Shown here: piece after piece, positions 20,472 to 44,752 of the stretch | Layout: each line of letters begins with the position of its first letter | How positions within the stretch are numbered: the first letter of the stretch is position 1 | Origin: Verrucomicrobiales bacterium | Lineage (GTDB): Bacteria; Verrucomicrobiota; Verrucomicrobiia; Verrucomicrobiales; V1-33 | Direction: 5' to 3' | Length of the DNA: 64,000 nucleotides | Assembly: GCA_035550135.1 (NCBI GenBank) | Contig: DASZQB010000131.1 | Location: 66,411 to 130,410 of the forward strand | The notes under the pieces: generated by a model | The model's database searches: none | What the model was told of the DNA's origin: nothing | What the model saw: the letters and a program-made list of their open reading frames with translations, nothing else | Made by a program: the position numbers and the translations under genes

Positions 20472-20474
20472 ACC

Positions 20475-22502: not shown

Positions 22503-22509
22503 CAACGCC

Positions 22510-32100: not shown

Positions 32101-32223
32101 GAAATGCCGCGCGAGCAGGGTGCGTCCGAAGCCCCCCCGTCCCAGTTCGTTTACCGAACCGTCGGGCCTTACCAGCACTTCAAAATTGCCGAAGCGCAGA
32201 CCGGTGGTGTCATCCTGAAACAT
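26200..32223 (-). CDS. Giant single-pass membrane Ser/Thr protein kinase (kinase, kinase-like domain, long helical region, ER/K repeat helix, TM, extracytoplasmic domain)
   Basis: Hanks kinase landmarks at the N-terminus: GRGGFGRT, VALK, HLDIKPSNLM, DFGL, ASPEQ (about nt 31370-32190). A second kinase-like stretch without catalytic residues spans aa ~300-440. About 480 aa are almost pure E/A/R/K (nt 27715-29150). The TM helix is PVLAIAAAVAVIGGGVAWWMA (nt 27587-27650). The C-terminal ~460 aa have no recognised motif. Confidence 0.9.
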   Translation of the reverse strand: MFQDDTTGLRFGNFEVLVRPDGSVNELGRGGFGRTLLARHFVLDTEVALKLIDERHAMDEAARNRFLKEAREQARLSHPGIARITDCGQVEGQLYYAVELCPGGNIKEFVIKTGPLSVSDTFHLLLQAAEALEYSHRRGVVHLDIKPSNLMLVFDEDDKPQVKLIDFGLVQRTATENGPPGMEGRPLFSAAFASPEQIRSQPTDGRSDIFSLGMTGWFLLMGRNPLEGAADVVIQERLSGGDYEPQLPKQLTAKPRAVLARMIKRNPGERYANGMDLLNDLRACLQGMPPLSGGWQKRQRSGGALADRFMLEKGVQSRHGTVHQAIDREKRLKVKVTLLRSGNLAAAIAQYKKAATAMRDMEGSGLLRVLDISEFNEGWAVVEEAAPGVSLTDILRREGAKPLGRYAPLVWQISTAMDTAFAAGLANLLLEDTLVEMPPEDANRPIDWSVVNLKIPLSPAVQSGAATPDADATATGGDFTRTTTTSVAGVQLLARWVYFIVGGKNPPPSSLYSMKEYIALPGLGDAANQILARHLCGQSSPPKCEDLVRQLFVSDGISWESVGERIRQTRWGGIIQQSGILMDDIEQAAADAEKIANACRPFAEIVPDAVKECYACVSRVYDASTAAREKQALISQGGGKSLAAGKAAVAALDEISQTATLALAKAEAAMKEAKATAEKLQRETQQRERRRRELTESLADAWRRTEAAAKEAKELAEECRRVAPSAGAARQMDSFAAQTGALVSQLEALHREAAEVPEAELSRLESQIPQARQVAADAGEMARACHSLLERAKIDARRREEEAKLRAAVEAEISGFIQQAEQTAADAPAIRAEIDALAEECPALHEIAQRAAADASRAAGIVEELHSLRTLGTIDAAGVNQARQRSATSLDDLRSVMGSLHSAIRQVRPIADEHRRVMERFRAASAEIVTLTNAADEAIASLPDPAALTATPDSPGAAWLRRCGDSVGSAVQSRDSLTALAASLDPQRAADAGRIIEEARRFAGLCRSQASEAARHWQEADFAIKETARLEREAEEQRLREEEEARRRMEEEMERRRLEEIERQRQVAEAKRLAEEAEQRRVAEEEARRKAEEEARRIAEEEARRQAEEAERRRIEEEAARRKAEEEARIRAEAEAKRLAEEAERRRIEEEAARLKAEEEARIRAEAEAKRLAEEAEQRRMEEEAARLRAEEEARLFAEAEAKRLAEEAERRRIEEEEAKREAEEEAKRQAEEAKRRAEEEERRRIEEEAARLKAEEEARIFAEAEAKRLAEEAERLRIAEEARRKAEEEARRQAEEETERRQLEEEAARLKAAREARLRAEAEAKRLAEEAEQRRIEEENARRIAKEEAEKRRLEEEARRLAREEAERVRAAEEATRLAEEAERKRIQEEEARARAAEEARIKAEQEAERQREEEARRKAAEEEKRRLAEEAAKRKAEEEARRKAEAEEKRRLKEEADKRKTEEEARRKEEAEAKRNADAEAKRRSQEEAAQRKAEAEEKRLKAVPAVTPAETQETPKKKGSKSPVLAIAAAVAVIGGGVAWWMAKKKDGDPKPDQPPGAESHVTTIKFSGGALPADIQLSGTGDSEVTRDGDEVRITTKSDAPPLKVALSSSKKGIKIVPATLEVGSNSTAPLAVTITRETGTLTLSDAPAATPSFQSRAWLKWAGDAGYASPGTETTRFVDTRTQSNLTVPAGPWLVSFDDDEPAPGKAGKAGSIVDAKDGGTLAIEAGKRAALRLPPGWSPVLYSLLDWKSRVAEDEEQTVMKALVDYIAGQRFPAPEGKVKEVFAGLAKAASRPVLSYPVYLTRRDGRFYLLRPQRNPYRRLVLNDPIESLALLAVIINTVSEIKLDLDAMNPMTGGAGAGGRIPLNRFSDCLLVTREALQKSGIPAALEPVPRLNTSLNILKMAQGDNWSVPEDDAKGYAFVWKDSDEPCTNVHVHSDGTVTLQFRMNEKSTRELTIGQNADGSLKAQMKEGAGDDEKDTFTGTLTPQTALPGPLQAVLKK
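27715..29150 (-). repeat. Coding E/A/R/K low-complexity region with 99-bp (33-codon) tandem periodicity
   Basis: Near-identical consecutive 99-bp units lie at 28593-28691, 28692-28790 and 28791-28889 (protein unit EAEAKRLAEEAExRRIEEEAARLKAEEEARIRA). More diverged copies lie at ~28221-28322 and 28395-28496. Degenerate periodicity extends across the whole interval. Confidence 0.9.
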
Positions 32224-32297
32224 GCTGCGGAATCAGACGGAGCATAGCACGCCTTTTCCCTGTCTGCTTCGGCTCAGTGCTTCCTGACAAACCAGTT

Positions 32298-35200
32298 TCA
32301 CGGGACGACGGAGATTCTAAGGCGTGTGAAGAGCACCGGGCCCGGAGCCAGAGCGGTAAATGTCACCGGATCCGTGCCCGCTGTAGTCATGGGTGTCCAC
32401 AGGACAAGGTCGTCCGAACTCTCCGCGGTGAGCAGCACGTGCGCATCGCAAAGGCTGTCGAAACCGCGGTCAACCGTCAGGGTGGCGGTGTCGGCGGCGA
32501 CAACCGGAAGCGGCAGAGGAGTGAACGCTGCGGGATTGGTGCCCATGAAATACTCCAACAGGTTCGTGAGACCGTCGCCATCGGTGTCATCGGTAGCGGT
32601 TTGAGCCGCGGCGGCGGGAAAGCGATCAACGTAAGCGTTATAACCGGAGAGCGTGCCGGAATTGGAGAAGCCCGGCGTGCGGTGATCGCTGATGCCCCCG
32701 TAGGTGGCCGGGTTCCGGAGCTGGCTGGCCAGCGTGGCATCCGGACTGCGGGCGATCACGCAATTCCCCGCCGATTCTGTGACCGCATCAAAGCCCGGCG
32801 TGAGCATGTCCTGAAGGGAGGTATTGGCGGCACCGAAGACGAGGGCGTCGATGACGTTGTTGCAGGTCGCCGGGGAACCCGCGGTGAATTCCGCCGCCGT
32901 TCCGCGGTACACAGCCACTGCACCCGATGGCGGCAGCCAGTCATTGGCACCCGTATTGAGGCGGCCGGGTCCGCTCGCTGAATCATTCCAGAGCACAAAA
33001 AAATCGTTGGCCGGCCGGAACGAACCGCCCAACTCGAAGGCGGAAACGACAGTGCCTGCCGGACCATATACGACGAAGACAAAACCGGTTAGCGATTTGC
33101 CGCCGCCGCCGGGAGCGGTGAGTTCCACAAAGTCACTGTTATCCGGTGCAATCTGCGCGGTGTCCGCTTCATTAATAAAGGGACCCAATTCGATAAGTCC
33201 GCCATCATCCACCACAGTTAATACGCGAGAGCTGTTGCGCGAGTCGCCCGCGGGACCGCTGAGATACGTAAAACGCACCTGGCGGCTGGCAACCGGCGCG
33301 TCATTCAATGCATCGATGGGGAGTGAGGCGGCCCCCGCGATGAGAGAGCCGGAAGAGCCCGGCGGACGGATCTGTGCGGCGAGGGGATCAGCGCCGACGG
33401 GTTCACTTCGGACCAGGTAAGCGGAACTGCCCACGCCGCCGGAGATGTTCAGCACAGAGGCGCCCGCGCCCGCACTTTCCACGATGCTGGTGCATTTGAA
33501 GGACAGTAGAGACGCATCGCTGTCGCGGATGACAATACTCTGCGAGCTGTTTTGATATGCGGAGGAAAAGGCCGCCACGGTGAATGTGTTGTCACCGTTG
33601 CCTGCGGTGGCGTCGGTGGTGTGGAGAAAGAGATCCACCGTGTCCTGAGTTGCCGCCATGGTGATGGAGTCGCCAACATCCGGCAGCAGTCCCGCGGCGT
33701 CCGTGGTCAGTATGGGAGGTGAGGAAGCCGGGTTGCTGTGGGAGCGGACAAGGCGGACGCAGAGGTCAGAGACATCCGGAGGGAGGCCGTTAGTGGGCCG
33801 AACGATGGTCAGTTTCGCGGCGCCCTTGCCCCACAGTTCCGGCACGCTCGCGGCATTGGCCGTGTTGCTGAAAGTATCTGTAAATGTCAGGCCGATTGAA
33901 GCCGGGACGGGGACGAAGGCAGTGGTGCCGTCTCCCTTCGCGCCCGGCGTGCTGTAAGGCCGGGCGGCATCCAAACGATAACCGGAACTGCCCGGAGCGA
34001 TCGTCCCGAAGAAGAATGGCGCGTCGTAGGTTCCCGGCCCCTCCGCAGGCACCTTCAGCCACTGGTTCCCATAACGGGCGTCGATGGAACCGCTTCCGTC
34101 CACCTTGCGGGAATTGCTGCCGCCCTCGACGGCGCCGAACGTGTGCCCGGCTACTTCAAATCCGGCACCATTGAGCAGGCGCACCGCACTGCCATTGCGG
34201 ATATTCAGCCCGCCGGCTGCTTTGCGAATGATGGCATTGGAGAAAGCCGCCGTAATGCCCTCCGTGACAGTTCCTCCTCCGAAAACGACCAGCGCCTGGC
34301 CGGGGAGCAGAATGGAGCAGGCGGGAAATGTTTGCACGGTGGTTTCGTCCACCGCCAGCCGGAACGCAGAGAGGTCGAGATCGGCGGTGCCTGCGTTGAC
34401 GAGTTCAATGAAGCGATCGCTGTCGTCCTCGACCCCGTCTCCATTGGCATCCACGCCGGGTTTCGTATTGATCCCAACGGGGATATAGCCATTCACTTCA
34501 TTCACCACAACGGTGAGCGGCGAAGAGGCGTCATTGTCGGTCACGGTCAGCCAGCATCCGTGACCGGCGACCTGGACGCCATCCGGGGGCTCGGCCACAA
34601 AAAACGCCCGCTGGGTGCCATCCTGCCAACCATCATCCTGCGGCACCGTCAAAAAATCGGCGCTTTGGCTGCTGCCTGCGGGAATGCTGATGATCATGCG
34701 TGATACCTCTGTGCCTGGCACGAAAACCGGCCCTGGAGCGAGAACGGCCTCGGAAAAGTCCGTGGTATGGAGGGTCACTTCGATTCCACCCGGAGGGGCC
34801 AAAACAGGAGCTCCCTTGGAGTCGAGCAGTTTCACATGCGACACGATGGGCGCACTGCCCTCTGCGGCTTCAAGGTCCGCATCCACGATCTCCAGAAAGA
34901 GTTTACCGCCGGAGGGAAAAGCAGTGAAGTTGTCCCGCCCTGGCGAGGGTTCCTGCGCGGTCCACACGGCTCCATCTTTCGACAGCGATTCGGTCAGGCG
35001 ATTGCCATTGGCGTTCTCATTGAACTGCGCGGACACGCCGAGCGCTGTTTTGAGGTCCACGTCCTCGGCGACGGTGAAACTGGCGTAGAGCAGCGCATCC
35101 ACCCGCGTTTCCCCCGGCGCGGCATTGACGGTGGTGACACTTTTGGGCACCGGCGGCGCGCCGGCGGTAATGAAATTGCCGGGAACGTAAGCATTGGACG

Positions 35201-35645
35201 CATTGTGATACAGCACCACGGCGTCCGGTCCGGGCTGAATGGTGTCGTCGTCCGGCGGCAGGTTGGAAATGGAAGAGGCCTGCGTGGTGGCCAGCACAAG
35301 ATCGACCTTTGGCACTCCGGGGTTGCCCACCACAAAATAACCGGAAGCGCCAATGGCGAATCCATCGAGCGGGATCACACGGTAGAGAAGGTCACTGGCG
35401 CCGTTGAAGAAGGCGAGAGTATAGCCGTTCAGGGATTCACCCGGAACTCCCTTCAACTCAATGAATTGAAAGCCCTCGGTGGCGGGCGCACACTGAATGG
35501 TGGATGAATCGACTTCGTTAAGGCTCACAACCGCGCGGAGCTGGCTGCCCAACATCAGCGCGACGAGAGAGGCGCTCAGTTTTCCGGTGAGGGCGAAGCG
35601 GCTTTGCGAAGCCCGGAGGTACGGGAAATGGAGCCTTTTCATCAT
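32298..35645 (-). CDS. Secreted protein with three lamin-tail-domain (LTD)-like modules and a C-terminal TSP3-like Ca-binding motif plus a beta-rich tail
   Basis: N-terminal signal-like segment ...LSASLVALMLGSQLRA. LTD (PF00932)-type patterns: SLNEVDSS...FQFIELKG (N-terminus), VVVNEVNGY...DRFIELVNAGTADLDLSAFRL (~34290-34520), FINEADTAQIAPDNSDFVELTAPGG (~33000-33190). The C-terminus carries DDTDGDGLTNLLEYFMGTNP. Confidence 0.8.
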   Translation of the reverse strand: MMKRLHFPYLRASQSRFALTGKLSASLVALMLGSQLRAVVSLNEVDSSTIQCAPATEGFQFIELKGVPGESLNGYTLAFFNGASDLLYRVIPLDGFAIGASGYFVVGNPGVPKVDLVLATTQASSISNLPPDDDTIQPGPDAVVLYHNASNAYVPGNFITAGAPPVPKSVTTVNAAPGETRVDALLYASFTVAEDVDLKTALGVSAQFNENANGNRLTESLSKDGAVWTAQEPSPGRDNFTAFPSGGKLFLEIVDADLEAAEGSAPIVSHVKLLDSKGAPVLAPPGGIEVTLHTTDFSEAVLAPGPVFVPGTEVSRMIISIPAGSSQSADFLTVPQDDGWQDGTQRAFFVAEPPDGVQVAGHGCWLTVTDNDASSPLTVVVNEVNGYIPVGINTKPGVDANGDGVEDDSDRFIELVNAGTADLDLSAFRLAVDETTVQTFPACSILLPGQALVVFGGGTVTEGITAAFSNAIIRKAAGGLNIRNGSAVRLLNGAGFEVAGHTFGAVEGGSNSRKVDGSGSIDARYGNQWLKVPAEGPGTYDAPFFFGTIAPGSSGYRLDAARPYSTPGAKGDGTTAFVPVPASIGLTFTDTFSNTANAASVPELWGKGAAKLTIVRPTNGLPPDVSDLCVRLVRSHSNPASSPPILTTDAAGLLPDVGDSITMAATQDTVDLFLHTTDATAGNGDNTFTVAAFSSAYQNSSQSIVIRDSDASLLSFKCTSIVESAGAGASVLNISGGVGSSAYLVRSEPVGADPLAAQIRPPGSSGSLIAGAASLPIDALNDAPVASRQVRFTYLSGPAGDSRNSSRVLTVVDDGGLIELGPFINEADTAQIAPDNSDFVELTAPGGGGKSLTGFVFVVYGPAGTVVSAFELGGSFRPANDFFVLWNDSASGPGRLNTGANDWLPPSGAVAVYRGTAAEFTAGSPATCNNVIDALVFGAANTSLQDMLTPGFDAVTESAGNCVIARSPDATLASQLRNPATYGGISDHRTPGFSNSGTLSGYNAYVDRFPAAAAQTATDDTDGDGLTNLLEYFMGTNPAAFTPLPLPVVAADTATLTVDRGFDSLCDAHVLLTAESSDDLVLWTPMTTAGTDPVTFTALAPGPVLFTRLRISVVP

Positions 35646-35891
35646 GGAAAAACAGGGACGGAACAGGAGTTTGGAAAGCCCGGTCCCGGTTCGGTGGGAA
35701 TAGTTGTTTCCCGAAGAAGCGTCAACATCAAAACGCCACGGGCACCCTTCAACTTACCTCCGGCGGAAACGGTCCCCGGTGTATTTCCATGCCACGATTC
35801 TCCGCCTGGAACTCCATAACGCGGACGATTTGAGGTTTGACACGACTGCGCAAATTTCATGCAATTCCAATGTTTTTCACTCATTGGACTC

Positions 35892-38800
35892 ATGAAAACG
35901 CTATCACTATTCTCAATCCCGGGTGTCGCCGGATGCCTTTTATTTAGTGCGTTGAAGGCGCAGGCGCAATTTTACACGGCACCGTTTGGACCGGGCGGTT
36001 CGTGGAATCTTTACGAGGTCACGAACACCACCACGACCTGGAAACTGGGTCACCAAAATGCCATCGCGAAGCAGGCCGGGAGCACGGGAGTTTCCGGGGT
36101 GGCGGCGAATGCGACGACCGGGCACCTTGTGGCAATTGGAAGCTGGGCGGAGAACGGGCTGGTTTCGCTGATGGCGATCAACCATACGAATTCGGCGAAT
36201 GTTTGGATTGGCCTCTGCGACAACGATGATGCGGACCTTGGCGGTTCGACGTGGGCGGATGCGGGCACCAGCCAGACGAGCGATCAGTGGTACTGGGCGG
36301 GAACTTCCGGAGGCACGGGTCCGAACGGATGGCAAAAATTGAGCGAAGGCGGGGGGTATCAGGCGTTTTTCACCGGCGAGCCTAACAACTCAAACAACGA
36401 GGATGCGATCGAAATTCGCGCTGACGGAAAATGGAATGATGTGGCGCACAATACGGCGGGGACCGCGCGGCGGTCGGTGATCGAATGGGAGATCGGTTCG
36501 CTGACCCCCATCGCGGGGGCGCAGGTGATCAATCCGTTTTTTGCTGCGCCGTTCGGGCCGGGAGGAACCTACAATCTTTACATGATGGTCGGGGAGTCGG
36601 ACACGTGGATCAATGCCCATACCAAGGCGACCAGTATTTCGGCGCAGGGAACGGGGCTTCCGAGTCTGATAGGACACTTGCAAACGGGTCACCTGCTGCA
36701 GATTTCCTCGCGCGCAGAGAATTCGTTCGGGACACTGATGGCGAACCGGCTGCTGACGAATACCTATCAAATCGGCGCCAATACGGCGACGACGAACGTC
36801 TGGCTGGGTCTGACGGACAGTGACGATCCGGGCCTGAGCACCACGGAGGCGAACACGGACCGCACGGCGGGATGGATCTGGGCGGGGACCACCGGCGGCT
36901 CCGGTCCGAACGATGCGCAAACGCTGGCGCAAACCGTGGAGGCGCCGATGGCCAACGGTTTGCAATACTGGTTCAACGCAGCGACCAATGAGCCTAATAA
37001 TGCGGGCGGAACAAACTGGCCCTTTGGAGAGGATGCAGGGGAACTGCGCGGAGACGGCCACTGGAATGATCTTCCGCACAAGATTGGTCCGGCGGGAACA
37101 GCGGCGGTAACCACGGTGCGGCACTATATAATCGAATGGGATCTGGGCCTCCCGGTGCCGCCGCCGGAGGTGGCAACGCTGCCGGTGTATTACACGGCGC
37201 AGACAGGGGCGGGCGGGACGTGGAATCTGTATTATCTCGACTACACCATGGACACCTGGCAGGTGTTTGGAAACCGCTACGCCGACGCCAACTTCAACAA
37301 GGCAAGTTTCACCGGACTCCCGTCGATGGCGCTGAACAATACGGCGGGGCATTTGGTGGAAATTGCGGATCAATATGAGCACGGTCTGGTGTACCGTCTG
37401 GCGAATTTTCAGGGCATCTGGCTGGGATTGACCGACAATGAGGGTTTTGGCGGTCAGGAGGCGGGCAATGCTGCCAGCAATCCGACGAATCAGGTCCAGC
37501 CGTTCTGGGTATGGAGCGGGACCAACCCGCCGAGCACGGCGACTTATCGCCGGTGGAATGCCGGTGAGCCGAACGACAGCGGGGGGAATGAGGATGCGGG
37601 CGAAATGACGACCACGGGTTTCATGAACGACAACCAGATCAATAACGTCAACGGGGCCATCCGGCGTGCTCTGGTGGAATGGGATATCCAATCTGCTGTT
37701 CCCATCGTTGGCGCCGTGCAGGTGGCACCGATTCTGGATGGAAGCAGGACCCTGACCAATACGCCGGCCGCGGGCACATGGGCGATCAAGCAGATTTACG
37801 ATCCGATCGAGGCGAACCTGTTTACCGCCACGAAATTCTCACTGGACGGGCCCACGAACGGACGGGTATTCGAGGGCACGGCCGCGGTGATGAATCAGAA
37901 CGACACGCTGGTTTCGCCGGCTACGGCAATCAACTACCCAGGCTGGGGTGACACGGGGCTTTTTGGCGGAGACCTTCCCACCGTGGGCGAAACGGCGAAT
38001 ACCGATGACAACCAGTTCACGCGCTACGCGAGAACGAAGGTGAACGTCACAGAGGAGGGAGACTACACGTTCAATATCCACACGGACGACGGGATGGCGT
38101 TCCGCGTGGCCGGTCAGACGTTTATCTCGGTCTTCGGTCTTGGATTCATCGACTTTGTGGACAAGGGCACCGTGTTCGTGCCTTACGGGGGAGCGGACTC
38201 CAACACGCGGGCGGTGGTGCATTTGGCTCCGGGAGTTTATGATGTGGAACTGCTGTGCTGGGATGCGACGGGCGGAAGTTCGGCGGAGGTTTCGTGGGCC
38301 AGGGGCGTCTTTGCGACGGAAGAATCCGGGGCGGGCCAATGGAGTCTGGTGGGAGACCCGGCTTCAGTCTACCCAACGCCGGTGATCCCGCTGAATATGA
38401 CCGGCTCTCCCGCTTATGGGGACGGTCTTTGGGGACTGCATGTGGTGAGAGGCGCAGGGACCATTGCCAGTCTGACGGATGCCGTGAATGCCTTGCAGGC
38501 GGTTGCGGGCACGCATGATTACGGCACCGCGGCGGTCATCAATCATTCGGATCCGGAATATCCGGGCACGGGCGGCATCTTTCCCGGCGAACTGACGCTG
38601 CCGGGGGACACAGGGGCGGCGGATAACGATTTCGCGGTGCATGGACGCGCGAGACTGGCGATAACCACCGCTGGTCTCCAGACTATCTGCATTCGGTGCA
38701 GCGACTCCGCCGCGCTTCGCATCAAAGGTCAAACATGGCAGCAGATGGGTCCGGAGGCGGGGCTCGATCCCGCGGACTCCTCCACTATCTTTATCTACCG

Positions 38801-39941
38801 CAACAATCCGGCTAACAATACCACAACTGGAGAATTCGCGGCGAGGGCGCTGATCAATCTACCGGCGGGAAATCACGAGATCGAGTTTGTCACCTTTGAT
38901 CGCGACAACTCCTTCTTTGTCGAGATCTACTCACGGAGCGGCAATCAAATCAACACGGCTGAATATGCCGCCGGCACGGCAAATAACGGTCTGGCGAATC
39001 CGAGCGGCGACTATCGTCTGATCGGTTATAAAGGGGATGGAACTCTGTCGAGCCTCGGTGTGCTGGCTCCAGGCTGGCTTCGTCAAGGCACTACGCCGAG
39101 CGCCGCACAGCCCGGGGGCTGGCCGGGAACCAACATCGCCAACTTCGAGACATGGATTCTGGCTAACGGCGTGACGCCGGATTCCACCGCACGGGAAACC
39201 GTGAACGATCGTGATCCGCAAAATCCCACGACGGATCTGGGCATTCCCAATGGTCGCGACATCTGGCGTCAAACCACTGCTGATGACAATTTTTATGTGG
39301 AGCAGTTCGACGCCACGCTGGTCGTGCCGGAAGCGGGCACTTATTCCATCGGCTGGCAGGGAGATGACGGCGGCTACATCGAAGTCCGCGGTCTGCCGGC
39401 AGGTGTGGGATTCAGCCGGCTTGAGTCGATGGCGGTGGCGACACCGGCGATCGTTCCTGCGAGCGATGGCACGGTGAACGGGCGGCTGAGATTGGAAGGG
39501 ACCGGCGGAAACACGCGGACCATGGCGAAGATCAGTTTCCCGGACACGCTTAGTTATCCCGCGCAATTCCCTATTCGTTCTCTGCACTTCGAAGGCAGCG
39601 GCGGCTGCTACTGGGAGATTTTCGCGGGTCCCGGCAGCGGCTACGGACGGATGGTGACCCTCCTCCAAAGCGGTTCCGCGAGCGCCACCGTGGCCGATGT
39701 GGACGGCCTGCAACTGGTGGGCCCGGACATCGAGGTGCTGAACGTGAGCCTCCTGCCAGGCCCGGCCTTCTCCTTCACATTCTCGTCGCAGCAGGGAGTG
39801 ACCTACACGATCTCACGGACGCTCGATCTCGTGAATTGGACAAACGTCGGGACTATCGTGGCCACAGGTCCGACCTCGACCTACAACTCGGGCGTCCTTA
39901 CCGCTGCGGACATGCGGTATCTCTACCGGGCCACGAAGTAG
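35892..39941 (+). CDS. Secreted protein with three C-type-lectin-like modules followed by PA14-like modules
   Basis: Signal peptide MKTLSLFSIPGVAGCLLFSALKAQAQ (ATG 35892; the track start is 35859). There are three ~190-aa repeats, each with GHL(V/L)xI...(W/Y)xGL(C/T)D...EPN...E(D)A...W/M-ND. EPN codons are at 36378-36386, 36990-36998 and 37566-37574. WND codons are at 36432-36440 and 37062-37070. Later segments resemble PA14 (EEGDYTFNIHTDDGMAFRVAG; AGTYSIGWQGDDGGYIEVRG). Confidence 0.8.
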   Translation: MKTLSLFSIPGVAGCLLFSALKAQAQFYTAPFGPGGSWNLYEVTNTTTTWKLGHQNAIAKQAGSTGVSGVAANATTGHLVAIGSWAENGLVSLMAINHTNSANVWIGLCDNDDADLGGSTWADAGTSQTSDQWYWAGTSGGTGPNGWQKLSEGGGYQAFFTGEPNNSNNEDAIEIRADGKWNDVAHNTAGTARRSVIEWEIGSLTPIAGAQVINPFFAAPFGPGGTYNLYMMVGESDTWINAHTKATSISAQGTGLPSLIGHLQTGHLLQISSRAENSFGTLMANRLLTNTYQIGANTATTNVWLGLTDSDDPGLSTTEANTDRTAGWIWAGTTGGSGPNDAQTLAQTVEAPMANGLQYWFNAATNEPNNAGGTNWPFGEDAGELRGDGHWNDLPHKIGPAGTAAVTTVRHYIIEWDLGLPVPPPEVATLPVYYTAQTGAGGTWNLYYLDYTMDTWQVFGNRYADANFNKASFTGLPSMALNNTAGHLVEIADQYEHGLVYRLANFQGIWLGLTDNEGFGGQEAGNAASNPTNQVQPFWVWSGTNPPSTATYRRWNAGEPNDSGGNEDAGEMTTTGFMNDNQINNVNGAIRRALVEWDIQSAVPIVGAVQVAPILDGSRTLTNTPAAGTWAIKQIYDPIEANLFTATKFSLDGPTNGRVFEGTAAVMNQNDTLVSPATAINYPGWGDTGLFGGDLPTVGETANTDDNQFTRYARTKVNVTEEGDYTFNIHTDDGMAFRVAGQTFISVFGLGFIDFVDKGTVFVPYGGADSNTRAVVHLAPGVYDVELLCWDATGGSSAEVSWARGVFATEESGAGQWSLVGDPASVYPTPVIPLNMTGSPAYGDGLWGLHVVRGAGTIASLTDAVNALQAVAGTHDYGTAAVINHSDPEYPGTGGIFPGELTLPGDTGAADNDFAVHGRARLAITTAGLQTICIRCSDSAALRIKGQTWQQMGPEAGLDPADSSTIFIYRNNPANNTTTGEFAARALINLPAGNHEIEFVTFDRDNSFFVEIYSRSGNQINTAEYAAGTANNGLANPSGDYRLIGYKGDGTLSSLGVLAPGWLRQGTTPSAAQPGGWPGTNIANFETWILANGVTPDSTARETVNDRDPQNPTTDLGIPNGRDIWRQTTADDNFYVEQFDATLVVPEAGTYSIGWQGDDGGYIEVRGLPAGVGFSRLESMAVATPAIVPASDGTVNGRLRLEGTGGNTRTMAKISFPDTLSYPAQFPIRSLHFEGSGGCYWEIFAGPGSGYGRMVTLLQSGSASATVADVDGLQLVGPDIEVLNVSLLPGPAFSFTFSSQQGVTYTISRTLDLVNWTNVGTIVATGPTSTYNSGVLTAADMRYLYRATK

Positions 39942-39965
39942 CAAGCGGCAAACGAATCGAATGAC

Positions 39966-40003
39966 CGGCCTGCCTCCGTACCCGGCGGCAGGCCGCTTTG
40001 TAC
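39966..40003 (+). terminator. Probable intrinsic terminator after the lectin/PA14 gene
   Basis: 9-bp perfect stem CGGCCTGCC (39966-39974) / GGCAGGCCG (39988-39996), followed by a weak T tract CTTTGT. Confidence 0.5.
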
Positions 40004-40152
40004 TCCTCCGGAACCGGCGTTTACAATTCTCCGCGAACTTTTCTTGTGCAGGCACGGTTTCTGCCTCTAAATGGGGCATTCAGAAATTCCATGCGCGTCC
40101 CCGGCACGGTTCTTCCTGTTGCTGTTCCGACTCTAGCTCTGATCTAACGAAT

Positions 40153-40842
40153 ATGTACAACGCGCTCTGGAAATCCTTTGGACTCGTCACCGGCATTTGG
40201 ACGCTCTCTCAGACGGCAGCCTCTGCGGCGCTGGTTCTCTCGGCGGACTTCAATGCGAACAACGGCGGGTTTACGGTAGCAAACGCTGGCACTCCGGCAG
40301 GTCCCTGGACATGGGACGGAGTCGGCACGTGGCTCGCCAACGGCGAGGGAAACCTGGGCACCCCGACGGCCAGCGAATTGACCTCTCCCGCGTTTAATGT
40401 TCCTGCCGCGGGACCCCTTACGGTGGCCATCAGTCACCGCTACAGTTTTGAATTTGATGGAACGCGCTGGGATGGCGGTCGCCTGCAGTACAGCCAGAAC
40501 GGAGGAGCGTGGACGAACGTCTCGGCAGCCTTCACGTCCGGCGGTTATGATGGAGTGATTACCGGCAACAACGCTTTGAACGGCAGCCAGGGCTGGAACG
40601 GTGATTCCGCCGGATACGGGACAGGAAGTTTCATCACAAGCCAGGTCTCTATTCCTGGGTTTGCTGCGGGAGACTCCGTGCAGATTCGCTTTCAAGCCGG
40701 CTGGGATGAATTCTCCACGGGAACTGCGCCGAATTGGCAAATCACGAATGTGAATGTGGACGCGGTGCCCGAGCCTGCGACGACGGGAATGCTTGCTGCG
40801 GCTGCCGCAGGAATCCTTTGTGTGCGCCGTCGGCGTCGTTAA
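40153..40842 (+). CDS. PEP-CTERM protein with a beta-sandwich (MAM/galactose-binding-like) domain
   Basis: From ATG 40153: MYNALWKSFGLVTGIWTLSQTAASA (signal). The end reads NVNVDAVPEPATTGMLAAAAAGILCVRRRRR (PEP-CTERM). The track ORF 39961 adds an implausible 64-aa leader that spans the upstream terminator hairpin. Confidence 0.85.
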   Translation: MYNALWKSFGLVTGIWTLSQTAASAALVLSADFNANNGGFTVANAGTPAGPWTWDGVGTWLANGEGNLGTPTASELTSPAFNVPAAGPLTVAISHRYSFEFDGTRWDGGRLQYSQNGGAWTNVSAAFTSGGYDGVITGNNALNGSQGWNGDSAGYGTGSFITSQVSIPGFAAGDSVQIRFQAGWDEFSTGTAPNWQITNVNVDAVPEPATTGMLAAAAAGILCVRRRRR

Positions 40843-41093
40843 TTCAAGGGGCGGGATTTTTCGGAAAGTCATTCCGGTTTGCGGAGGAGGGATTGCCGCT
40901 CTTTTCCCGTAGAGACGTAGTCCCTTTCCGTCATGAAAGGCCGGTGATTCTGTTATGCTGCCTGTGCCTCAGCGGCACGGTCACGGCCGGAAATAATGAC
41001 CGTGAAGACTCGCGACAGCGGAACTTCACGAACCTCCCGTCGGCGTTTCCTCCGGGGCAGGTTTACTGAATGTGTAGTAATAAGACCCGGAGA

Positions 41094-41936
41094 TCAGGCC
41101 TTTCTGCGGCGGCGCATCAGCCCGGCGGCAGCGGCGAGAGCGAGGGAAACAGCGGCGGGTTCAGGGACGCTGACGCTGGCAGCGGCGGCGGCTTGAATTT
41201 CCGCAGCGGTCAGCACGGTATCATAGACACGGAGGCCGTCGATGCGCCCGCTCATCTGGTCGGAGTCATTGCCGCCGAGGCGGCCGCCAATCGTGAGCCG
41301 GGCTGCGGCCAGATCGTCCCCAAAAAGGCTGTTGTCGGCACCGCCGAGGAGATTGCCGTTTAAATAATAATTGATCGCGCCATTATTATAAGTGGCGGCG
41401 ATGTGCACCCAGTTTCCAGGAATGACCGCAAAGGGATCCGAATCGTTATCGAGCACGCCGTAGTTGGTGAACCGGATCGTGGAGGAACTTCCATCGGTTG
41501 TGGCAAGGCGAAGCGCGAGACCCCAGCCGCGGTCAGCTCCGGTGGCGCTTCCTGTCGAAATGGGCCGGTAGGAGCGCGCGGCGATGTCTCCGGCGGTCGG
41601 ATTCACCCATGACATAACGGTAAAAGCCCCGGTGCGCGGGATGTTCATGACCGGGTTGACATTGTCCGCGCCGCTGGTGAAAAAGCTGTCTGTGGTGCTC
41701 GGACCATAGCCAATGGAGGTGCCCACCGCATTGGTCACCGTGATGGCCCCGTAAACACCGTTTGGCACTCCCGCCTGTCCGTAAGCATTCGGCCCGATGG
41801 GTACCGCCGCAACATGCCCTCCGGTGGAGTCGATGAGGTTTCCGGAGGCTTCATCCTGATTCCATGAGGCGATCAGAGCAGCGCGGGCGGGCAGGCAGAA
41901 ACTCAGAAGAAGAAGCGGAAACGAAAGGGATTTCAT
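41094..41936 (-). CDS. PEP-CTERM protein with a LamG/concanavalin-like (Laminin_G_3) domain
   Basis: Signal peptide MKSLSFPLLLLSFCLPARA. NWVHIAATYNNGAINYYLNGNLLG and GRIDGLRVYDTVLTAAEI are LamG_3-type. The end reads SVSVPEPAAVSLALAAAAGLMRRRRKA. Confidence 0.85.
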   Translation of the reverse strand: MKSLSFPLLLLSFCLPARAALIASWNQDEASGNLIDSTGGHVAAVPIGPNAYGQAGVPNGVYGAITVTNAVGTSIGYGPSTTDSFFTSGADNVNPVMNIPRTGAFTVMSWVNPTAGDIAARSYRPISTGSATGADRGWGLALRLATTDGSSSTIRFTNYGVLDNDSDPFAVIPGNWVHIAATYNNGAINYYLNGNLLGGADNSLFGDDLAAARLTIGGRLGGNDSDQMSGRIDGLRVYDTVLTAAEIQAAAAASVSVPEPAAVSLALAAAAGLMRRRRKA

Positions 41937-42051
41937 CGAATTAAAAATGAGTGACGATCAAGCATTTACGAAATCAATTGGCGGGGCTCAATCCCAAAAT
42001 TTGATACAAATCGAATTTTTTCGCAGGTCCGGGAACTGATTGGTGGCCGGA

Positions 42052-42148
42052 GGTGCAAAATTCTGAAATTTTCCCGTGCCAAACGGCGGGAGATTGCCTA
42101 GTCTCGCCGCCCTTTAGGGAAAACTCCGATTCGCTGGTGCAAAATTCT
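42052..42148 (+). repeat. Two perfect 13-bp direct repeats GGTGCAAAATTCT upstream of the secretin gene
   Basis: Copies lie at 42052-42064 and 42136-42148, 84 bp apart start to start (about 8 helical turns), in an AT-richer leader. The function is unknown; they may be an operator or activator site. Confidence 0.5.
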
Positions 42149-42187
42149 TACTCATCTTCCAAACGGCCTTCCGGTTGCGTACTTCGA

Positions 42188-44677
42188 TTGCCTCAGCGCG
42201 GGGCGGTTGCGGGGGCGCTCTTACTTGGTTTATCGATGATGCCCGCGGCGCTGGCCGGGAGTGGCAAGGGTGATGAACCCCTGATCGTTTCCAAAGAGGT
42301 GGAGCGCCGGCTCAAAGCCAAAGATGAAGCTCAGCGGCTGGTGGCGGAGGGAGATGAACTCGCGGCTTCAGGAGATCAGTGCGGCGCGGCTGACAAGTAC
42401 TATGCAGCGGCGCAAATGCTTCGGCCCGGAGCGCCAGGGACCCTGCAGTTGCGCAACGAGGCGGTGAAAAAGTTCAGTGTATCGGGCGTGGCCTGTGCAA
42501 AGGAACAGGCGCATAATGGCGAGCATGAAAAGGCCTCGACGCGGGTGGAGCAGATCCTGGCGGATAACATGGCGCCCAGGGACAAGCCTGCGCTGGCACT
42601 GCAAAGGCATCTCAAGGACACGGACCGCTACAACCCCGCGTTGACGCCGAAGCATGTCGCGGATGTGAAAAAGGTGTCCAATTTGTTGATGATGGGAGAG
42701 CACTTCACGCAACTTGGCGATTATGATGCTGCGGAGAAATCCTACAATCAGGTGCTGGCCATCGATGCCACCAATACCGCAGCCCGTCGCGGACTGGAGG
42801 GGGTGGAAAGACTGATCACGAATTATTACAAGGCGGCGCGTGATCATACGCGGATAAAGATGCTCAACGACGTGGATCGCATCTGGGAGACCAAGGTGCC
42901 GTTTACCGGAGCGCGTCCCACCGGCATGGCCAACCCGGACGACGTCTATATTGGCGGCAGTGCGGTGGCTTCCAAGCTGCGCACGCTGATCATTCCGCAC
43001 GTCTCGTTTGCGGACGCATCACTGCCGGAGGTCGTTTCCTATCTGATCAAAAAGAGTATCGAAGTGGACCCGCAGGGACGCGGGGTGAATATCATTTGGA
43101 CGCCGGGGAACGGCGCTGCGACAAATCCGGTGACGCTGGAGTTGAGAAATGCCAGTCTTGGAGACGTGCTGCGCCAGGTGTGTCTGCTCAGCGGCACACG
43201 GTTTCAGACCGACGGCGGGCTCGTGAGGATCTCGGTGCAGGGCGGCAATGCCCTGGAGACGCGTCAGTTCAAGGTGCCGCCCGGATTTCTTTCCACGGCT
43301 GCCACGGCCGTCCCCGCGGAGGCGGCTGACCCTTTTGCAACCGGCGCGGCGGCAGCGGACAAGCCGAAGCTGGGCCGCCTCGACCCGAAGACGTTTCTTG
43401 AGCAGCAGGGTGTCGAGTTTCCCGCTGGATCGAGGGCCGGTTACAATGCGTCGCAAAATCTCCTGACCGTGACCAACACCTCGGAGAACCTGGACGCCAT
43501 CGCCACGCTTGTGGAAACGCTGACCACCTCCGGACAAAAGCAGGTGCTGGTTCAGATCGTGCTTCTCAAGTGCAGCCAGACGAATTTTGAGGAGCTGGGT
43601 TTTGATGTCTTCATGGACGCGTTCAAGGCGGGCGGAGGCGTTTTTGCGGAAGGCGGCACTTTTGGAAATTCCCCGGATTTCAGCCAGGGAGGCACATCCA
43701 CCGGCAACTTCGGCAATACCACGTTCGCGCCTCTCAACGTTCCCTTCAATGTGGTGAACGGTCCGATGACCGCCGGCTTGCGCAGTTCATACGAGCTCAC
43801 CCGCACGCAGACGATCGATGACCTCATCAATCTGGCGAACGGCATCAATCCAGTCCAGCCAGGACGGAGTCCGTACAATTTTGCAATCGGGGGGATATTC
43901 ACCAATCCGCGTTTTCAGGCGCTCTTCCGCGGGCTCAGCCAGAAGAAGGGAATCGACCTTTCCGTGGCCACGAAGACCATTGTGAAGAGCGGCCAGAAAG
44001 CCTCCGCGTTCTCCGGACGGAAGTTTCTGTATCCCACTGAATTCGATCCGCCGCAGATCCCGCAGACCATCCGGCGGAATCAGATTATCCTGTTCGACGA
44101 CCAAGGATTTCCCTTCATCGTCGATCTTCCGAATGATCAGGCGCCGGTGACACCAGCCACGCCCAGTTCGTTCCAGGAAAAGGACATCGGCTCCAGCGTC
44201 GAAGTGGAGGCGAACATTGCCGAGGACAACTATACGGTGGACCTGAACCTCGCCGTCGGTTTCACCGAGTTTGATGGATTTATCAACTACGGCACGCCGA
44301 TCATGACGGACAATGGCGTGGTCCTGACAGACAACCGCATCATTCAGCCGGTCTTCTCCAAAGTGGCTGCGAATACGCAGGTGCAGATTTACGACGGTCA
44401 AACCGTCGCGATTGGCGGCCTGTCCACAGCCAAGGTTGAAACGATTGAGGACAAAGTGCCGATCTTCGGGAGCATCCCCATCATCGGCAGACTCTTTAAG
44501 AGCAACCTGCAGCGCCACACGCGCACTGCGGTGGTCTATTTCGTCACGGTCAAGATTGTGGATCCCGCCGGCGAGGGCGTTCACGGAAGCAAGGTGCTTG
44601 AGGCCGCCGCCTCCGCGGGCGTGAACGTTTCCGATCTTTCCGGGTCCGATTCCATTCTGCTTCCGCCTCCCCAGTAA
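42188..44677 (+). CDS. Secretin-family outer-membrane channel (type II/III secretion system protein family) with a TPR-like N-terminal region
   Basis: C-terminal secretin domain (PF00263): VQIYDGQTVAIGGLSTAKVETIEDKVPIFGSIPIIGRLFKSNLQRHTRTAVVYFVTVKIV. N0/STN-like module: VTLELRNASLGDVLRQVCLLSGTRFQTDGGLVRI. TPR-like helices lie upstream of it. The start is uncertain. TTG 42188 gives the signal peptide (M)PQRGAVAGALLLGLSMMPAALAG; the track start GTG 42053 lies inside the direct repeat. Confidence 0.85.
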   Translation: MPQRGAVAGALLLGLSMMPAALAGSGKGDEPLIVSKEVERRLKAKDEAQRLVAEGDELAASGDQCGAADKYYAAAQMLRPGAPGTLQLRNEAVKKFSVSGVACAKEQAHNGEHEKASTRVEQILADNMAPRDKPALALQRHLKDTDRYNPALTPKHVADVKKVSNLLMMGEHFTQLGDYDAAEKSYNQVLAIDATNTAARRGLEGVERLITNYYKAARDHTRIKMLNDVDRIWETKVPFTGARPTGMANPDDVYIGGSAVASKLRTLIIPHVSFADASLPEVVSYLIKKSIEVDPQGRGVNIIWTPGNGAATNPVTLELRNASLGDVLRQVCLLSGTRFQTDGGLVRISVQGGNALETRQFKVPPGFLSTAATAVPAEAADPFATGAAAADKPKLGRLDPKTFLEQQGVEFPAGSRAGYNASQNLLTVTNTSENLDAIATLVETLTTSGQKQVLVQIVLLKCSQTNFEELGFDVFMDAFKAGGGVFAEGGTFGNSPDFSQGGTSTGNFGNTTFAPLNVPFNVVNGPMTAGLRSSYELTRTQTIDDLINLANGINPVQPGRSPYNFAIGGIFTNPRFQALFRGLSQKKGIDLSVATKTIVKSGQKASAFSGRKFLYPTEFDPPQIPQTIRRNQIILFDDQGFPFIVDLPNDQAPVTPATPSSFQEKDIGSSVEVEANIAEDNYTVDLNLAVGFTEFDGFINYGTPIMTDNGVVLTDNRIIQPVFSKVAANTQVQIYDGQTVAIGGLSTAKVETIEDKVPIFGSIPIIGRLFKSNLQRHTRTAVVYFVTVKIVDPAGEGVHGSKVLEAAASAGVNVSDLSGSDSILLPPPQ

Positions 44678-44752
44678 GCCGCCCCTCCTGTTTCCCCTTT
44701 ACAGACACGGCCTTCTGAAGGAGGCCGCATCTTACTCTTCCCTCCACCAACC

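Follow-up and report, generated by a model that had tools for sequence, protein, structure and literature searches.

A gene of a soil-type Verrucomicrobiales bacterium (35892..39941, + strand, stop included, in the 64,000-nucleotide stretch of DNA analysed here, hereafter the window) encodes an exported multi-lectin protein of 1349 aa in which three EPN/WND C-type lectin (CTLD) modules are fused to PA14-like modules. The first-pass annotation had proposed this architecture, and it is borne out by the Lectin_C and PA14 profiles, by AF2 models and by the register of the motifs. The protein is likely to be an exported, non-enzymatic lectin, multivalent and Ca-dependent, that would serve in adhesion or capture glycans. 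Its family is widespread among bacteria but unstudied, and standard domain models recognise it already; our literature search found no paper on the protein.

Gene product and export signal

According to the ORF list, the reading frame spans 35859/35892-39941 (+), and the ATG at 35892 gives 1349 aa. This product is 100% identical to the NCBI entry 'MAG TPA: hypothetical protein VG796_29315 [Verrucomicrobiales bacterium]'. Its layout is a signal peptide, three CTLD modules, three PA14-like modules and a C-terminal beta-domain of ~73 aa. The Sec-type signal peptide (aa 1-25, 35892..35966, + strand), MKTLSLFSIPGVAGCLLFSALKAQA with putative cleavage before QF, was read from the sequence, and the homologue alignment keeps its AxA site in the consensus M.K....A.....A..A.AQFYTAP. 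Cys15 of the signal peptide is not conserved among homologues and thus does not mark a lipobox. Neither PEP-CTERM, lipobox nor TM segment was found in the protein as an anchor; the exported chain may be attached to the surface or secreted. Pfam and NCBIfam profile searches detected no catalytic domain anywhere in it.

Three paralogous CTLD modules

The three modules are adjacent on the + strand and each carries the full motif series. Module 1 (aa 26-213, 35967..36530), supported by Lectin_C, AF2 and Foldseek, has WIGL, EPN163-165, E170, WND181-183 and IEWE; module 2 (aa 214-430, 36531..37181), supported by paralogy and the family HMM, has WLGL, EPN367-369, E380, WND391-393 and IEWD; and module 3 (aa 431-612, 37182..37727), supported by Lectin_C and a PDB sequence match, has WLGL, EPN559-561, E567, MND578-580 and VEWD. 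EPN at aa 163, 367 and 559, WND at 181 and 391, MND at 578 and the (I/V)EW(E/D) ending of each module (EWE/EWD/EWD at aa 198, 415 and 596) were found exactly as first quoted. WIGL or WLGL is present in every module, and the 55-80 or so residues from there to EPN hold the long loop region that canonical CRDs have between beta2 and beta3. The initial description of three ~190-aa repeats was right as to their number, and the modules overall measure ~190-215 aa; module 2, with a longer loop region, has 217 aa. Identities are 40% between modules 1 and 2 (E 1e-44), 38% between 1 and 3 (E 3e-34) and 28% between 2 and 3 (E 5e-21), and by this sequence comparison the modules are true paralogous repeats.

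The whole protein exceeds the Pfam cutoffs for both Lectin_C (49.3 bits vs 22.6; E = 9.4e-13; three stretches) and PA14 (PF07691; 33.7 bits vs 24; two stretches). Scored alone, CTLD modules 1, 2 and 3 reach 29.4, 18.3 and 25.0 bits with Lectin_C; module 2 falls below the cutoff, yet it scores 206 bits with the family HMM. With the family profile, 111 different C-type lectin sequences of the PDB are matched at E <= 1e-3, the best of them at 2e-11, and the best PDB sequence match of module 3 is DC-SIGNR, over aa 536-584. Given the Lectin_C E-value and the family-profile matches to PDB C-type lectins, the CTLD motifs are no chance pattern.

Fold and predicted Ca site

The AF2 model of CTLD1 (pLDDT 95.2, pTM 0.91) has helices at 25-33 and 60-74 and strands at 2-5, 13-18, 79-84, 145-150, 156-160 and 168-178, with the long loop modelled at pLDDT 88-96. 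As modelled, this is a CTLD of the canonical long-loop type and not a different fold. Foldseek returned 255 PDB CTLD matches at E <= 1e-3, and every one of the best 50 is an animal Ca-dependent CRD or a near relative among CTLDs. Fold matches include CEL-I, SP-D, ASGPR, DC-SIGNR and CD23, as well as sugar complexes of SP-D, SP-A, CL-11, ASGPR and Endo180. Compact link or intimin types are not among the best fold matches of CTLD1, which are long-loop CRDs instead.

The family profile 'waagePnnsgggEdavElrtdgrwnDn' pairs with CD23 'WAPGEPNNGGQGEDCVMMRGSGRWNDA', and likewise with ASGPR2 and SP-D; EPN, E and ND stand in the same columns of the profile alignment as the Ca-site residues of CD23, ASGPR and SP-D. 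The putative Ca2+ site-2 ligand sets read from the sequence are E163/N165/E170/N182/D183 in CTLD1, E367/N369/E380/N392/D393 in CTLD2 and E559/N561/E567/N579/D580 in CTLD3. Among 24 homologues, P164, E170, W181, N182 and D183 of CTLD1 do not vary, and at least 90% retain E163 and N165; this pattern of conservation indicates that the predicted Ca-ligand pentad of CTLD1 is under selection.

The suspicion that the third copy, with MND in place of WND, is degenerate is not supported. The Trp replaced here does not serve as a Ca ligand in WND, and N and D are retained; all 11 orthologues possessing CTLD3 have [F/M/Y]ND, and the Lectin_C score of this module is higher than that of CTLD2. CTLD3 is therefore probably not degenerate, its five predicted Ca-ligand positions being intact.

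The canonical disulfides C1-C4 and C2-C3 are a different matter. All four of their cysteines are missing, as originally noted: the whole protein has only six Cys, modules 1, 2 and 3 contain 1, 0 and 0, and Ala stands in the profile alignment where animal CTLDs have Cys after 'ED'. Membership among CTLDs is fold-based (PMC6468738), the fold having two helices beside a beta0-beta1-beta5 and a beta2-beta3-beta4 sheet, with a WIGL strand; in view of the missing disulfides, we file the modules as a disulfide-free variant and not as classical animal-type CRDs.

We propose that the three N-terminal modules, once exported by the Sec route, would fold as canonical long-loop C-type CRDs, stabilised without these disulfides. 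In each, Ca2+ would be held by Glu and Asn from EPN, by the Glu further downstream and by the Asn-Asp pair of (W/M)ND, and this ion would in turn ligate two adjacent sugar hydroxyls. From the EPN form, the expected ligands are sugars of Man, Glc, GlcNAc or Fuc type, whose 3-/4-OH groups are equatorial.

Homologues and variation at the specificity site

The alignment set comprises 23 full-length homologues. Homologues, P0017, P0011 and P0019 among them, are 33-62% identical and have ~1350 aa, six lectin modules and the C-terminal domain; a fragment, P0006, shows 82% identity over 68% of the query. The subfamily of the window protein is arranged CTLD-CTLD-CTLD-PA14x3, and a more distant subfamily CTLD-CTLD-PA14x4, often with QPD or NPD in CTLD2. 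One homologue has already been named a C-type lectin domain protein, and most carry a precomputed PF07691 assignment. Homologues were found in 50 PVC-superphylum genomes, every one of them Cys-poor. Among PVC-type modules, 57 of 77 are free of Cys and the rest contain one or two; Cys-free CTLDs, mostly EPN and sometimes QPD, span Verrucomicrobiota, Kiritimatiellia, Victivallales and Planctomycetota. The earlier remark that such domains are uncommon in bacteria thus holds for cultured or textbook bacteria but not for PVC-superphylum genomes and metagenomes, where Cys-free CTLDs are frequent.

In CTLD1, the homologue P0022 carries QPD instead of EPN, and the CTLD2 position holds EPN, QPD, NPD or EPG in different homologues. 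These natural swaps between EPN and QPD/NPD fall exactly on the specificity-determining tripeptide, which favours a lectin reading. Some animal EPN/WND CTLDs bind non-sugar ligands, which counts against a lectin reading. After the model of snaclecs, eggshell CTLDs and type II antifreeze proteins, the modules could bind a protein, CaCO3 mineral, ice or a lipid, with EPN/WND serving only to hold structural Ca2+; loss of the disulfides might indeed make Ca2+ chiefly a structural stabiliser, and the eggshell mineral-binding CTLD struthiocalcin ranks 34th among the fold matches. The CTLD fold is also ligand-promiscuous, but non-sugar CTLDs of these kinds generally lose the E/Q-P-D/N motif (PMC6468738). 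Here the motif is kept in 3/3 modules, the family toggles specifically between EPN and QPD/NPD, as expected for sugar specificity, and the fusion to lectin-type PA14 also points to glycans. We consider a non-carbohydrate ligand improbable.

PA14-like region and C-terminal domain

The first annotation had PA14-like modules following the CTLDs, and they do; their number is three, over aa 613-1276, and a C-terminal domain of 73 aa had gone unmentioned. All lie on the + strand. PA14-like module 1 (aa 613-832, 37728..38387; PA14 17.7 bits alone, AF2) has HTDDG with D732-D733 invariant; module 2 (aa 833-1058, 38388..39065; paralogy, AF2) has CSDSA and no DD pair; and module 3 (aa 1059-1276, 39066..39719; PA14 18.9 bits alone) has WQGDDGGY with D1158-D1159-G1160 invariant, its match covering profile positions 22-73. 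Each module by itself stays below the Pfam cutoff, module 2 giving no score at all. Module 2 is 30% identical to module 1 (E 1e-16), and module 3 is weakly related to module 1 (E 0.005).

No PDB match was found for the PA14 region at the sequence level. Its AF2 model (pLDDT 82.3, pTM 0.79) matches the RsgI tandem PA14 6qe7 in Foldseek with E 3.5e-9 and probability 1.00, and 6qdi, Cea1A, Epa1/6/9, Flo1/5 and the Marinomonas MpIBP PA14 also with probability 1.00. These matches concern the whole region, and the proposed split into three individual modules draws on internal similarity. PA14 lectins use an Asp-Asp pair for Ca2+, together with a second Ca-binding loop. The adjacent Asp-Asp that is invariant in modules 1 and 3 and missing in module 2 presumably corresponds to the 'DcisD' Ca motif of Flo/Epa.

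Several features weigh against a lectin reading: CTLD2 and every PA14-like module are sub-cutoff on their own, the PA14 region has no PDB match by sequence, and PA14-like module 2 is without DD.

The C-terminal domain (39720..39938, + strand) is an all-beta domain of ~73 aa and no known family that ends in ...RYLYRATK. It has seven predicted strands and is conserved in both subfamilies; no significant Pfam or NCBIfam match was obtained, and no second copy exists within the 64-kb window.

Gene neighbourhood and proposed role of the protein

The three PA14-like beta-sandwich modules may supply extra glycan-binding surfaces, so that a chain with six lectin-type modules would bind repetitive glycans with avidity, for example polysaccharides, EPS or algal, fungal and other microbial surfaces. 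From such avidity follows the suggested role as an adhesin or glycan-capture protein of the Verrucomicrobiales cell. The same domain content would also fit a substrate-capture accessory which, like a string of CBMs, concentrates polysaccharide, soluble or particulate, at the cell for separately encoded glycoside hydrolases instead of mediating adhesion. In its favour, Verrucomicrobia are known polysaccharide degraders, and clostridial RsgI anti-sigma factors, whose tandem PA14 senses biomass, provide the best structural match of the PA14 pair (6qe7/6qdi). However, no glycoside hydrolase, sulfatase or transporter adjoins the gene in the window, and the ORF listing of eight homologue loci shows flanking ORFs that are inconsistent from one locus to the next, several of them housekeeping-like. 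Neither an enzyme partner nor a conserved operon was found, nor any conserved neighbourhood at the eight loci that points to a ligand or pathway. Furthermore, C-type CRDs typically target terminal monosaccharides, not polymer chains. We judge substrate capture for separate hydrolases to be an unlikely alternative to an adhesive or glycan-capturing lectin.

The gene lies in a bacterial context of 60% GC, with PEP-CTERM, secretin and exonuclease VII (xseA) genes around it. This context, together with the Cys-poor homologues in PVC-superphylum genomes, speaks against a eukaryotic contaminant or a recent animal-to-bacterium transfer, which the 'animal-style' look of the motifs could suggest. Many bacterial CLec-fold proteins are DGR targets, and a variable protein of the Mtd/TvpA-like kind was considered as well. 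No TR/VR-like repeat pair is present in 30000-45000 and no reverse transcriptase occurs among the neighbours; the sole direct repeat near the gene is a 76%-identical paralogous stretch of CTLD modules 1 and 2, and the fold is that of canonical CRDs, not of Mtd or FGE types. Both readings are effectively refuted.

Significance

At present this is an annotation-level finding: standard HMMs detect the protein already and its kinds of domain are known. If binding is confirmed, it would provide a bacterial, disulfide-free canonical Ca2+/sugar CRD with natural EPN/QPD variation in its family, indicate that the 'defining' disulfides are dispensable for fold and site, and offer an easily expressed scaffold for glycan-probe engineering. 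It would also reveal multivalent lectins that may let Verrucomicrobia and Planctomycetes, abundant in soil and freshwater, cling to polysaccharides or to other organisms, and would bear on whether the CRD was born in animals or is shared with bacteria. More speculatively, PVC bacteria may possess genuine Ca2+-dependent C-type CRDs that form a large and old lineage without disulfides and share the animal EPN/QPD specificity code, the hexa-modular CTLD/PA14 proteins being dedicated to adhesion to the glycans of eukaryotes met as partners or prey (algae, fungi, protists). We hold this wider view only tentatively. If it is true, the 'animal' C-type CRD mechanism is no metazoan invention, or was anciently exchanged, and bacteria furnish a cysteine-free CRD scaffold that can be expressed in the cytoplasm.

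Comparison with known systems

With the PA14 lectins (RsgI 6QE7/6QDI, Flo1/Flo5/Epa/Cea1 and the Marinomonas primoryensis ice-binding adhesin 6X7J) the window protein shares the beta-sandwich (probability 1.00) and, with clostridial RsgI, the tandem arrangement. The target-normalised TM-score (TMt) is a modest 0.4-0.6; unlike known PA14 lectins, the modules are ~220 aa long with an extra N-terminal helix-containing segment, and the protein around them is neither an RTX nor an anti-sigma protein nor a GPI-anchored cell-wall adhesin.

Animal C-type CRDs (SP-D/MBP/CL-11, DC-SIGN/DC-SIGNR, ASGPR, CD23, CEL-I) have the same fold as the window CTLDs, with Foldseek E down to 2e-7 and TMt of 0.65-0.77, and the WIGL strand, long loop, EPN, 'ED' and WND are in register. 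However, the window CTLDs lack the four canonical cysteines and are only ~17-22% identical; extra residues inserted in the long loop and between alpha1 and alpha2 make them 40-80 aa longer. They also have a conserved N-terminal G(P/A)GG(T/K)(W/Y)N(L/V)Y strand pair that animal CRDs do not, and are fused to PA14 in a bacterial host, whereas animal CRDs are joined to collagen, neck or TM regions.

Intimin/invasin D-terminal domains, the C-terminal domain of Legionella Lcl (8Q4E), the IgAse N-terminal domain and DGR targets (Mtd) are also bacterial, extracellular CTLD-like folds, used for adhesion or ligand binding; none is among the best 50 Foldseek matches of CTLD1. These known bacterial CTLDs are compact or aberrant, without the long loop or an EPN/WND Ca-sugar site (PMC6468738; PMC12237041). 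The modules of the window protein, in contrast, are CRDs of the canonical long-loop type and show every motif of the set.

The Putative Lectin Gene and Its Product

The lectin gene lies in the single long plus-strand ORF of the region (35859–39941 in the ORF list), and translation from the ATG at 35892 gives a 1349-aa protein (35892–39941, +) that exactly matches the NCBI entry [quoted passage not shown]. The N-terminus reads as a Sec-type signal peptide with AQA↓QF at its cleavage site. Since the AxA site is kept among homologues and Cys15 is not, cleavage by signal peptidase I with no lipobox appears the probable route, and we rule out a lipoprotein reading of "VAGC". The mature part comprises three C-type lectin modules (CTLD1–3), three PA14-like modules and a C-terminal domain of about 73 aa. 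The NCBIfam scan of the protein matched no family, and no catalytic domain was found in it. A promoter and terminator scan returned no match better than shuffles and none that was informative.

C-Type Lectin Modules

The EPN, WND/MND and EWE/EWD motifs on which the first-pass annotation had based its reading of three C-type lectin modules are all in place: EPN at 163, WND at 181 and EWE at 198 in CTLD1 (aa 26–213); EPN at 367, WND at 391 and EWD at 415 in CTLD2 (aa 214–430); and EPN at 559, MND at 578 and EWD at 596 in CTLD3 (aa 431–612). With pairwise identities of 40% for CTLD1/2 (E 1e-44), 38% for CTLD1/3 (E 3e-34) and 28% for CTLD2/3 (E 5e-21), the three repeats are, as judged from sequence, genuine paralogous modules. 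Pfam Lectin_C matches the whole protein in three stretches at 49.3 bits (cutoff 22.6; E 9.4e-13), and scanned singly the modules score 29.4, 18.3 and 25.0 bits, in order. The PDB sequences matched by phmmer are animal C-type lectins only (DC-SIGNR, ASGPR2, SP-D and selectins). A profile built from an alignment of 41 CTLD modules of the lectin protein and its homologues matches nothing but canonical CTLDs at E ≤ 1e-3; these are 111 distinct PDB sequences, the best being CD23 (2e-11).

In mannose-binding protein MBP-A, as described by Weis and Drickamer, Ca2+ site 2 is built from five residues: Glu and Asn of the EPN tripeptide, the conserved Glu that comes next, and Asn and Asp of WND. All five positions are occupied, in register, in each of the three modules. 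In the profile alignments the family stretch "waagePnnsgggEdavElrtdgrwnDn" lies opposite "WAPGEPNNGGQGEDCVMMRGSGRWNDA" of CD23, and ASGPR2 and SP-D align likewise; the sole systematic difference in this stretch is an Ala for the Cys after "ED", which is C2 of the C2–C3 disulfide. The protein as a whole has six Cys, and CTLD1, CTLD2 and CTLD3 contain one, none and none, which bears out the reported lack of disulfide cysteines. Across a 24-sequence alignment, five CTLD1 residues (P164, E170, W181, N182 and D183) never vary, while E163 and N165 recur in at least 90% of sequences. One homologue (P0022) has QPD in its CTLD1.

The AlphaFold2 model of CTLD1, computed from the alignment of 41 modules, has a pLDDT of 95.2 and a pTM of 0.91, with every residue at 70 or higher, and its elements follow the long-form CTLD order: beta0, beta1, alpha1, alpha2, beta2, long loop, beta3, beta4, beta5. 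Foldseek returned 255 PDB matches at E ≤ 1e-3. The best 50 of these 255 are all animal CTLDs, nearly all of them Ca-dependent sugar-binding carbohydrate-recognition domains (CRDs) and many with bound sugar, so the structural model agrees with the proposed fold; they include CEL-I (E 2e-7, TMt 0.75), snake-venom lectins, SP-D, SP-A, CL-K1/CL-11, ASGPR, DC-SIGNR, CD23, Endo180, MGL and Mincle, and no compact bacterial CTLD-fold protein of the intimin/invasin type. By homology, the ligand residues of the modules would be expected to cluster in three dimensions.

The third copy, suspected of being degenerate on account of its MND, is probably not. The Trp of WND is a core residue and not a Ca ligand, and CTLD3 keeps E559, N561, E567, N579 and D580. 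All 11 orthologues with a third CTLD have F, M or Y followed by ND, and FND recurs in six modules from the genome scan, two of which are orthologous to CTLD3; the other four belong to different PVC proteins. Lectin_C, moreover, ranks CTLD3 above CTLD2.

PA14-Like Region and C-Terminal Domain

The PA14 assignment also held: Pfam PA14 matches the whole protein in two stretches at 33.7 bits (cutoff 24), although singly the three modules give 17.7 bits, no match and 18.9 bits, each below the cutoff. Modules 1 and 2 share 30% identity (E 1e-16); the relationship of module 3 to module 1 is weak (E 0.005). The sequence profile of the region found no match in the PDB. An AlphaFold2 model of aa 613–1349, built from a 17-row alignment (pLDDT 82.3, pTM 0.79), consists of three beta-sandwich modules followed by a small seven-stranded C-terminal domain. 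Its best Foldseek match is the tandem PA14 of clostridial RsgI-type anti-sigma factors (6qe7/6qdi; E 3.5e-9), followed by the PA14 lectin domains of Cea1A, Epa1/6/9, Flo1/Flo5 and a Marinomonas ice-binding adhesin, each at probability 1.00; cupin and vicilin matches were of low probability and were discarded as noise. The C-terminal modules are divergent PA14 domains. Module 1 (D732-D733) and module 3 (D1158-D1159) carry an invariant Asp-Asp pair that module 2 lacks; we take it to sit where the Flo/Epa adhesins have their DcisD Ca motif. Each PA14-like module (37728–39719) opens with a conserved (V/I)xN..D motif, of which N668/D671, N884 and N1105/D1108 are invariant.

The C-terminal beta domain of about 73 aa (39720–39938) is conserved, with the pattern …FSFTF.S..G.TYTI.RS..L..W……TTTYTS……R.FYRA, and belongs to no Pfam or NCBIfam family. 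It could serve in sorting or anchoring. No second copy of it, or of a CTLD, was found elsewhere in the window.

Genomic Surroundings

The window is a bacterial segment of about 60% GC; GC reaches 0.63–0.65, with negative skew, at 18001–24000 and 28001–32000, and is 0.57–0.60 elsewhere. Divergent from the lectin gene is a large, secreted-looking protein with a Lamin Tail Domain and a bacterial TSP3 repeat (32298–35645, −), and next to it a 2007-aa Ser/Thr kinase (26200–32223, −) with an N-terminal eukaryotic-type Pkinase domain (137 bits), the remaining ~1700 aa of which have no Pfam match. Directly downstream of the lectin gene is a small PEP-CTERM protein (39961–40842, +), whose true start probably lies downstream of the annotated ATG at 39961, since a signal-peptide-like segment begins near aa 65. 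It is followed by a second small PEP-CTERM protein with LamG/Laminin_G_3 (41094–41936, −), an 874-aa secretin (42053–44677, +; PF00263) with an N-terminal TPR region, which could be part of a type II or type IV-pilus-like export system, and a 574-aa ORF (44753–46477, +) without a Pfam match at E ≤ 0.01. Exonuclease VII (xseA) lies past this ORF; a tricorn-like protease and a secreted-looking 2032-aa protein with Lamin Tail, CotH kinase-like and chitobiase C-terminal domains (53500–59598, −) are further neighbours.

When these neighbours were sought at 50 homologue loci, none was found except a paralogue of the PEP-CTERM protein at 39961–40842 (37–40% identity), upstream of the lectin homologue in two loci (L010 and L016); the TPR-secretin is not linked to lectin homologues there. 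The flanking ORFs listed for eight of the homologue loci are different at each, and a number of them look like housekeeping genes. No conserved operon or partner emerges from these loci. The lectin gene looks like a stand-alone unit, and its surroundings thus give no hint of the ligand. A role as target of a diversity-generating retroelement is effectively refuted, as neither TR/VR-type repeats nor a reverse transcriptase was found around the gene.

Family and Distribution

The protein database holds 44 relatives, about 24 of them full-length (~1320–1480 aa), from Verrucomicrobiales and Verrucomicrobiota MAGs. The closer subfamily, to which the protein in the window belongs, has three CTLDs and three PA14-like modules; the distant one (P0013, P0019, P0023) has two and four, with the additional PA14-like module at the position of CTLD3 (37182–37727 in the window). 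As both have equal length (~1350 aa) and a common C-terminal domain, one lectin fold has been exchanged for the other at the third position within the family.

A genome scan, with one genome per species and the conserved N-terminal strand motif as query, gave 50 loci. Every taxon-named locus belongs to the PVC superphylum (Verrucomicrobiales, Luteolibacter, Kiritimatiellia, Victivallales, Pirellulales/Planctomycetota and Tepidisphaeraceae), and three have only generic labels such as "bacterium". Among the 77 modules from these loci, EPN occurs in 58, QPD in 5, NPD in 4 and EPR in 4; WND is present in 51. Cys is absent from 57 modules, single in 19 and double in one. Given a PVC-wide Cys-free family and a bacterial context, we reject eukaryotic contamination or recent transfer from animals, and contamination is as good as refuted.

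At E ≤ 1e-3 a library-wide HMM search matched 5231 representative proteins, of which 835 pass a threshold of 1e-10 and 63 one of 1e-30. The best 150 of these 5231 contain 371 near-full domains; 219 of them have no more than one Cys, and 138 of those 219 keep [EQ]P[ND]...E...ND. From these counts, (meta)genomic space holds numerous Cys-free canonical CRDs. The view that such modules are uncommon in bacteria stands for characterised bacteria and fails for (meta)genomic space.

Discussion

Domain identity, fold, ligand-residue conservation, the signal peptide and the lack of catalytic domains are established here. From them we infer Ca2+ and sugar binding, ligand class, location and role: the protein is probably a multivalent lectin that is exported, depends on Ca2+ and has no catalytic activity. 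The ligand pentad of each CTLD would hold one Ca2+, and this Ca2+ would then ligate vicinal sugar hydroxyls. EPN is the signature of Man/Glc/GlcNAc/Fuc-type ligands under the EPN/QPD rule, and the EPN of CTLD1–3 predicts sugars of these types; non-sugar ligands of the CTLDs are very improbable. PA14-like modules 1 and 3 may add further Ca-dependent sugar sites. Six serial modules would lend avidity for repetitive glycans, which fits adhesion or polysaccharide capture. A CBM-like capture of substrate serving glycan degradation, which we consider rather unlikely, is the other reading of such a protein.

In animal lectins, replacement of EPN by QPD changes Man-type to Gal-type binding. Among homologues the CTLD2 tripeptide varies between EPN, QPD, NPD and EPG, with QPD or NPD in database proteins P0013–P0016 and P0025 and in loci L010, L011, L012 and L014–L017. 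These natural variants imply that the family tunes its specificity at the tripeptide.

Both domain types are detected by standard HMMs, the exact protein is deposited and one homologue is named a C-type lectin domain protein; this much was already known. Our literature searches found no functional or structural study of PVC Cys-free CRDs; for canonical C-type CRDs of bacteria or the PVC group they yielded only reviews calling the known bacterial CTLDs compact or non-canonical. By fold and profile the protein belongs to the CTLD superfamily, whose mode of action it would share. Compared with the canonical Ca-dependent CRD, every tested hallmark is present except the two disulfides, and its CTLDs are therefore a disulfide-free bacterial variant of that domain and not a classical animal-type member. 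Known bacterial CTLDs have been reviewed as compact and without the long loop (PMC6468738), and the recently solved CTLD-like domains of IgAse NTD and Legionella Lcl lack both the long loop and disulfides (PMC12237041). Since those domains have no long loop and are absent from the best 50 fold matches, the Verrucomicrobiales lectin is distinct from them: in contrast to the compact bacterial CTLDs, its modules are the canonical long-loop CRD minus the disulfides.
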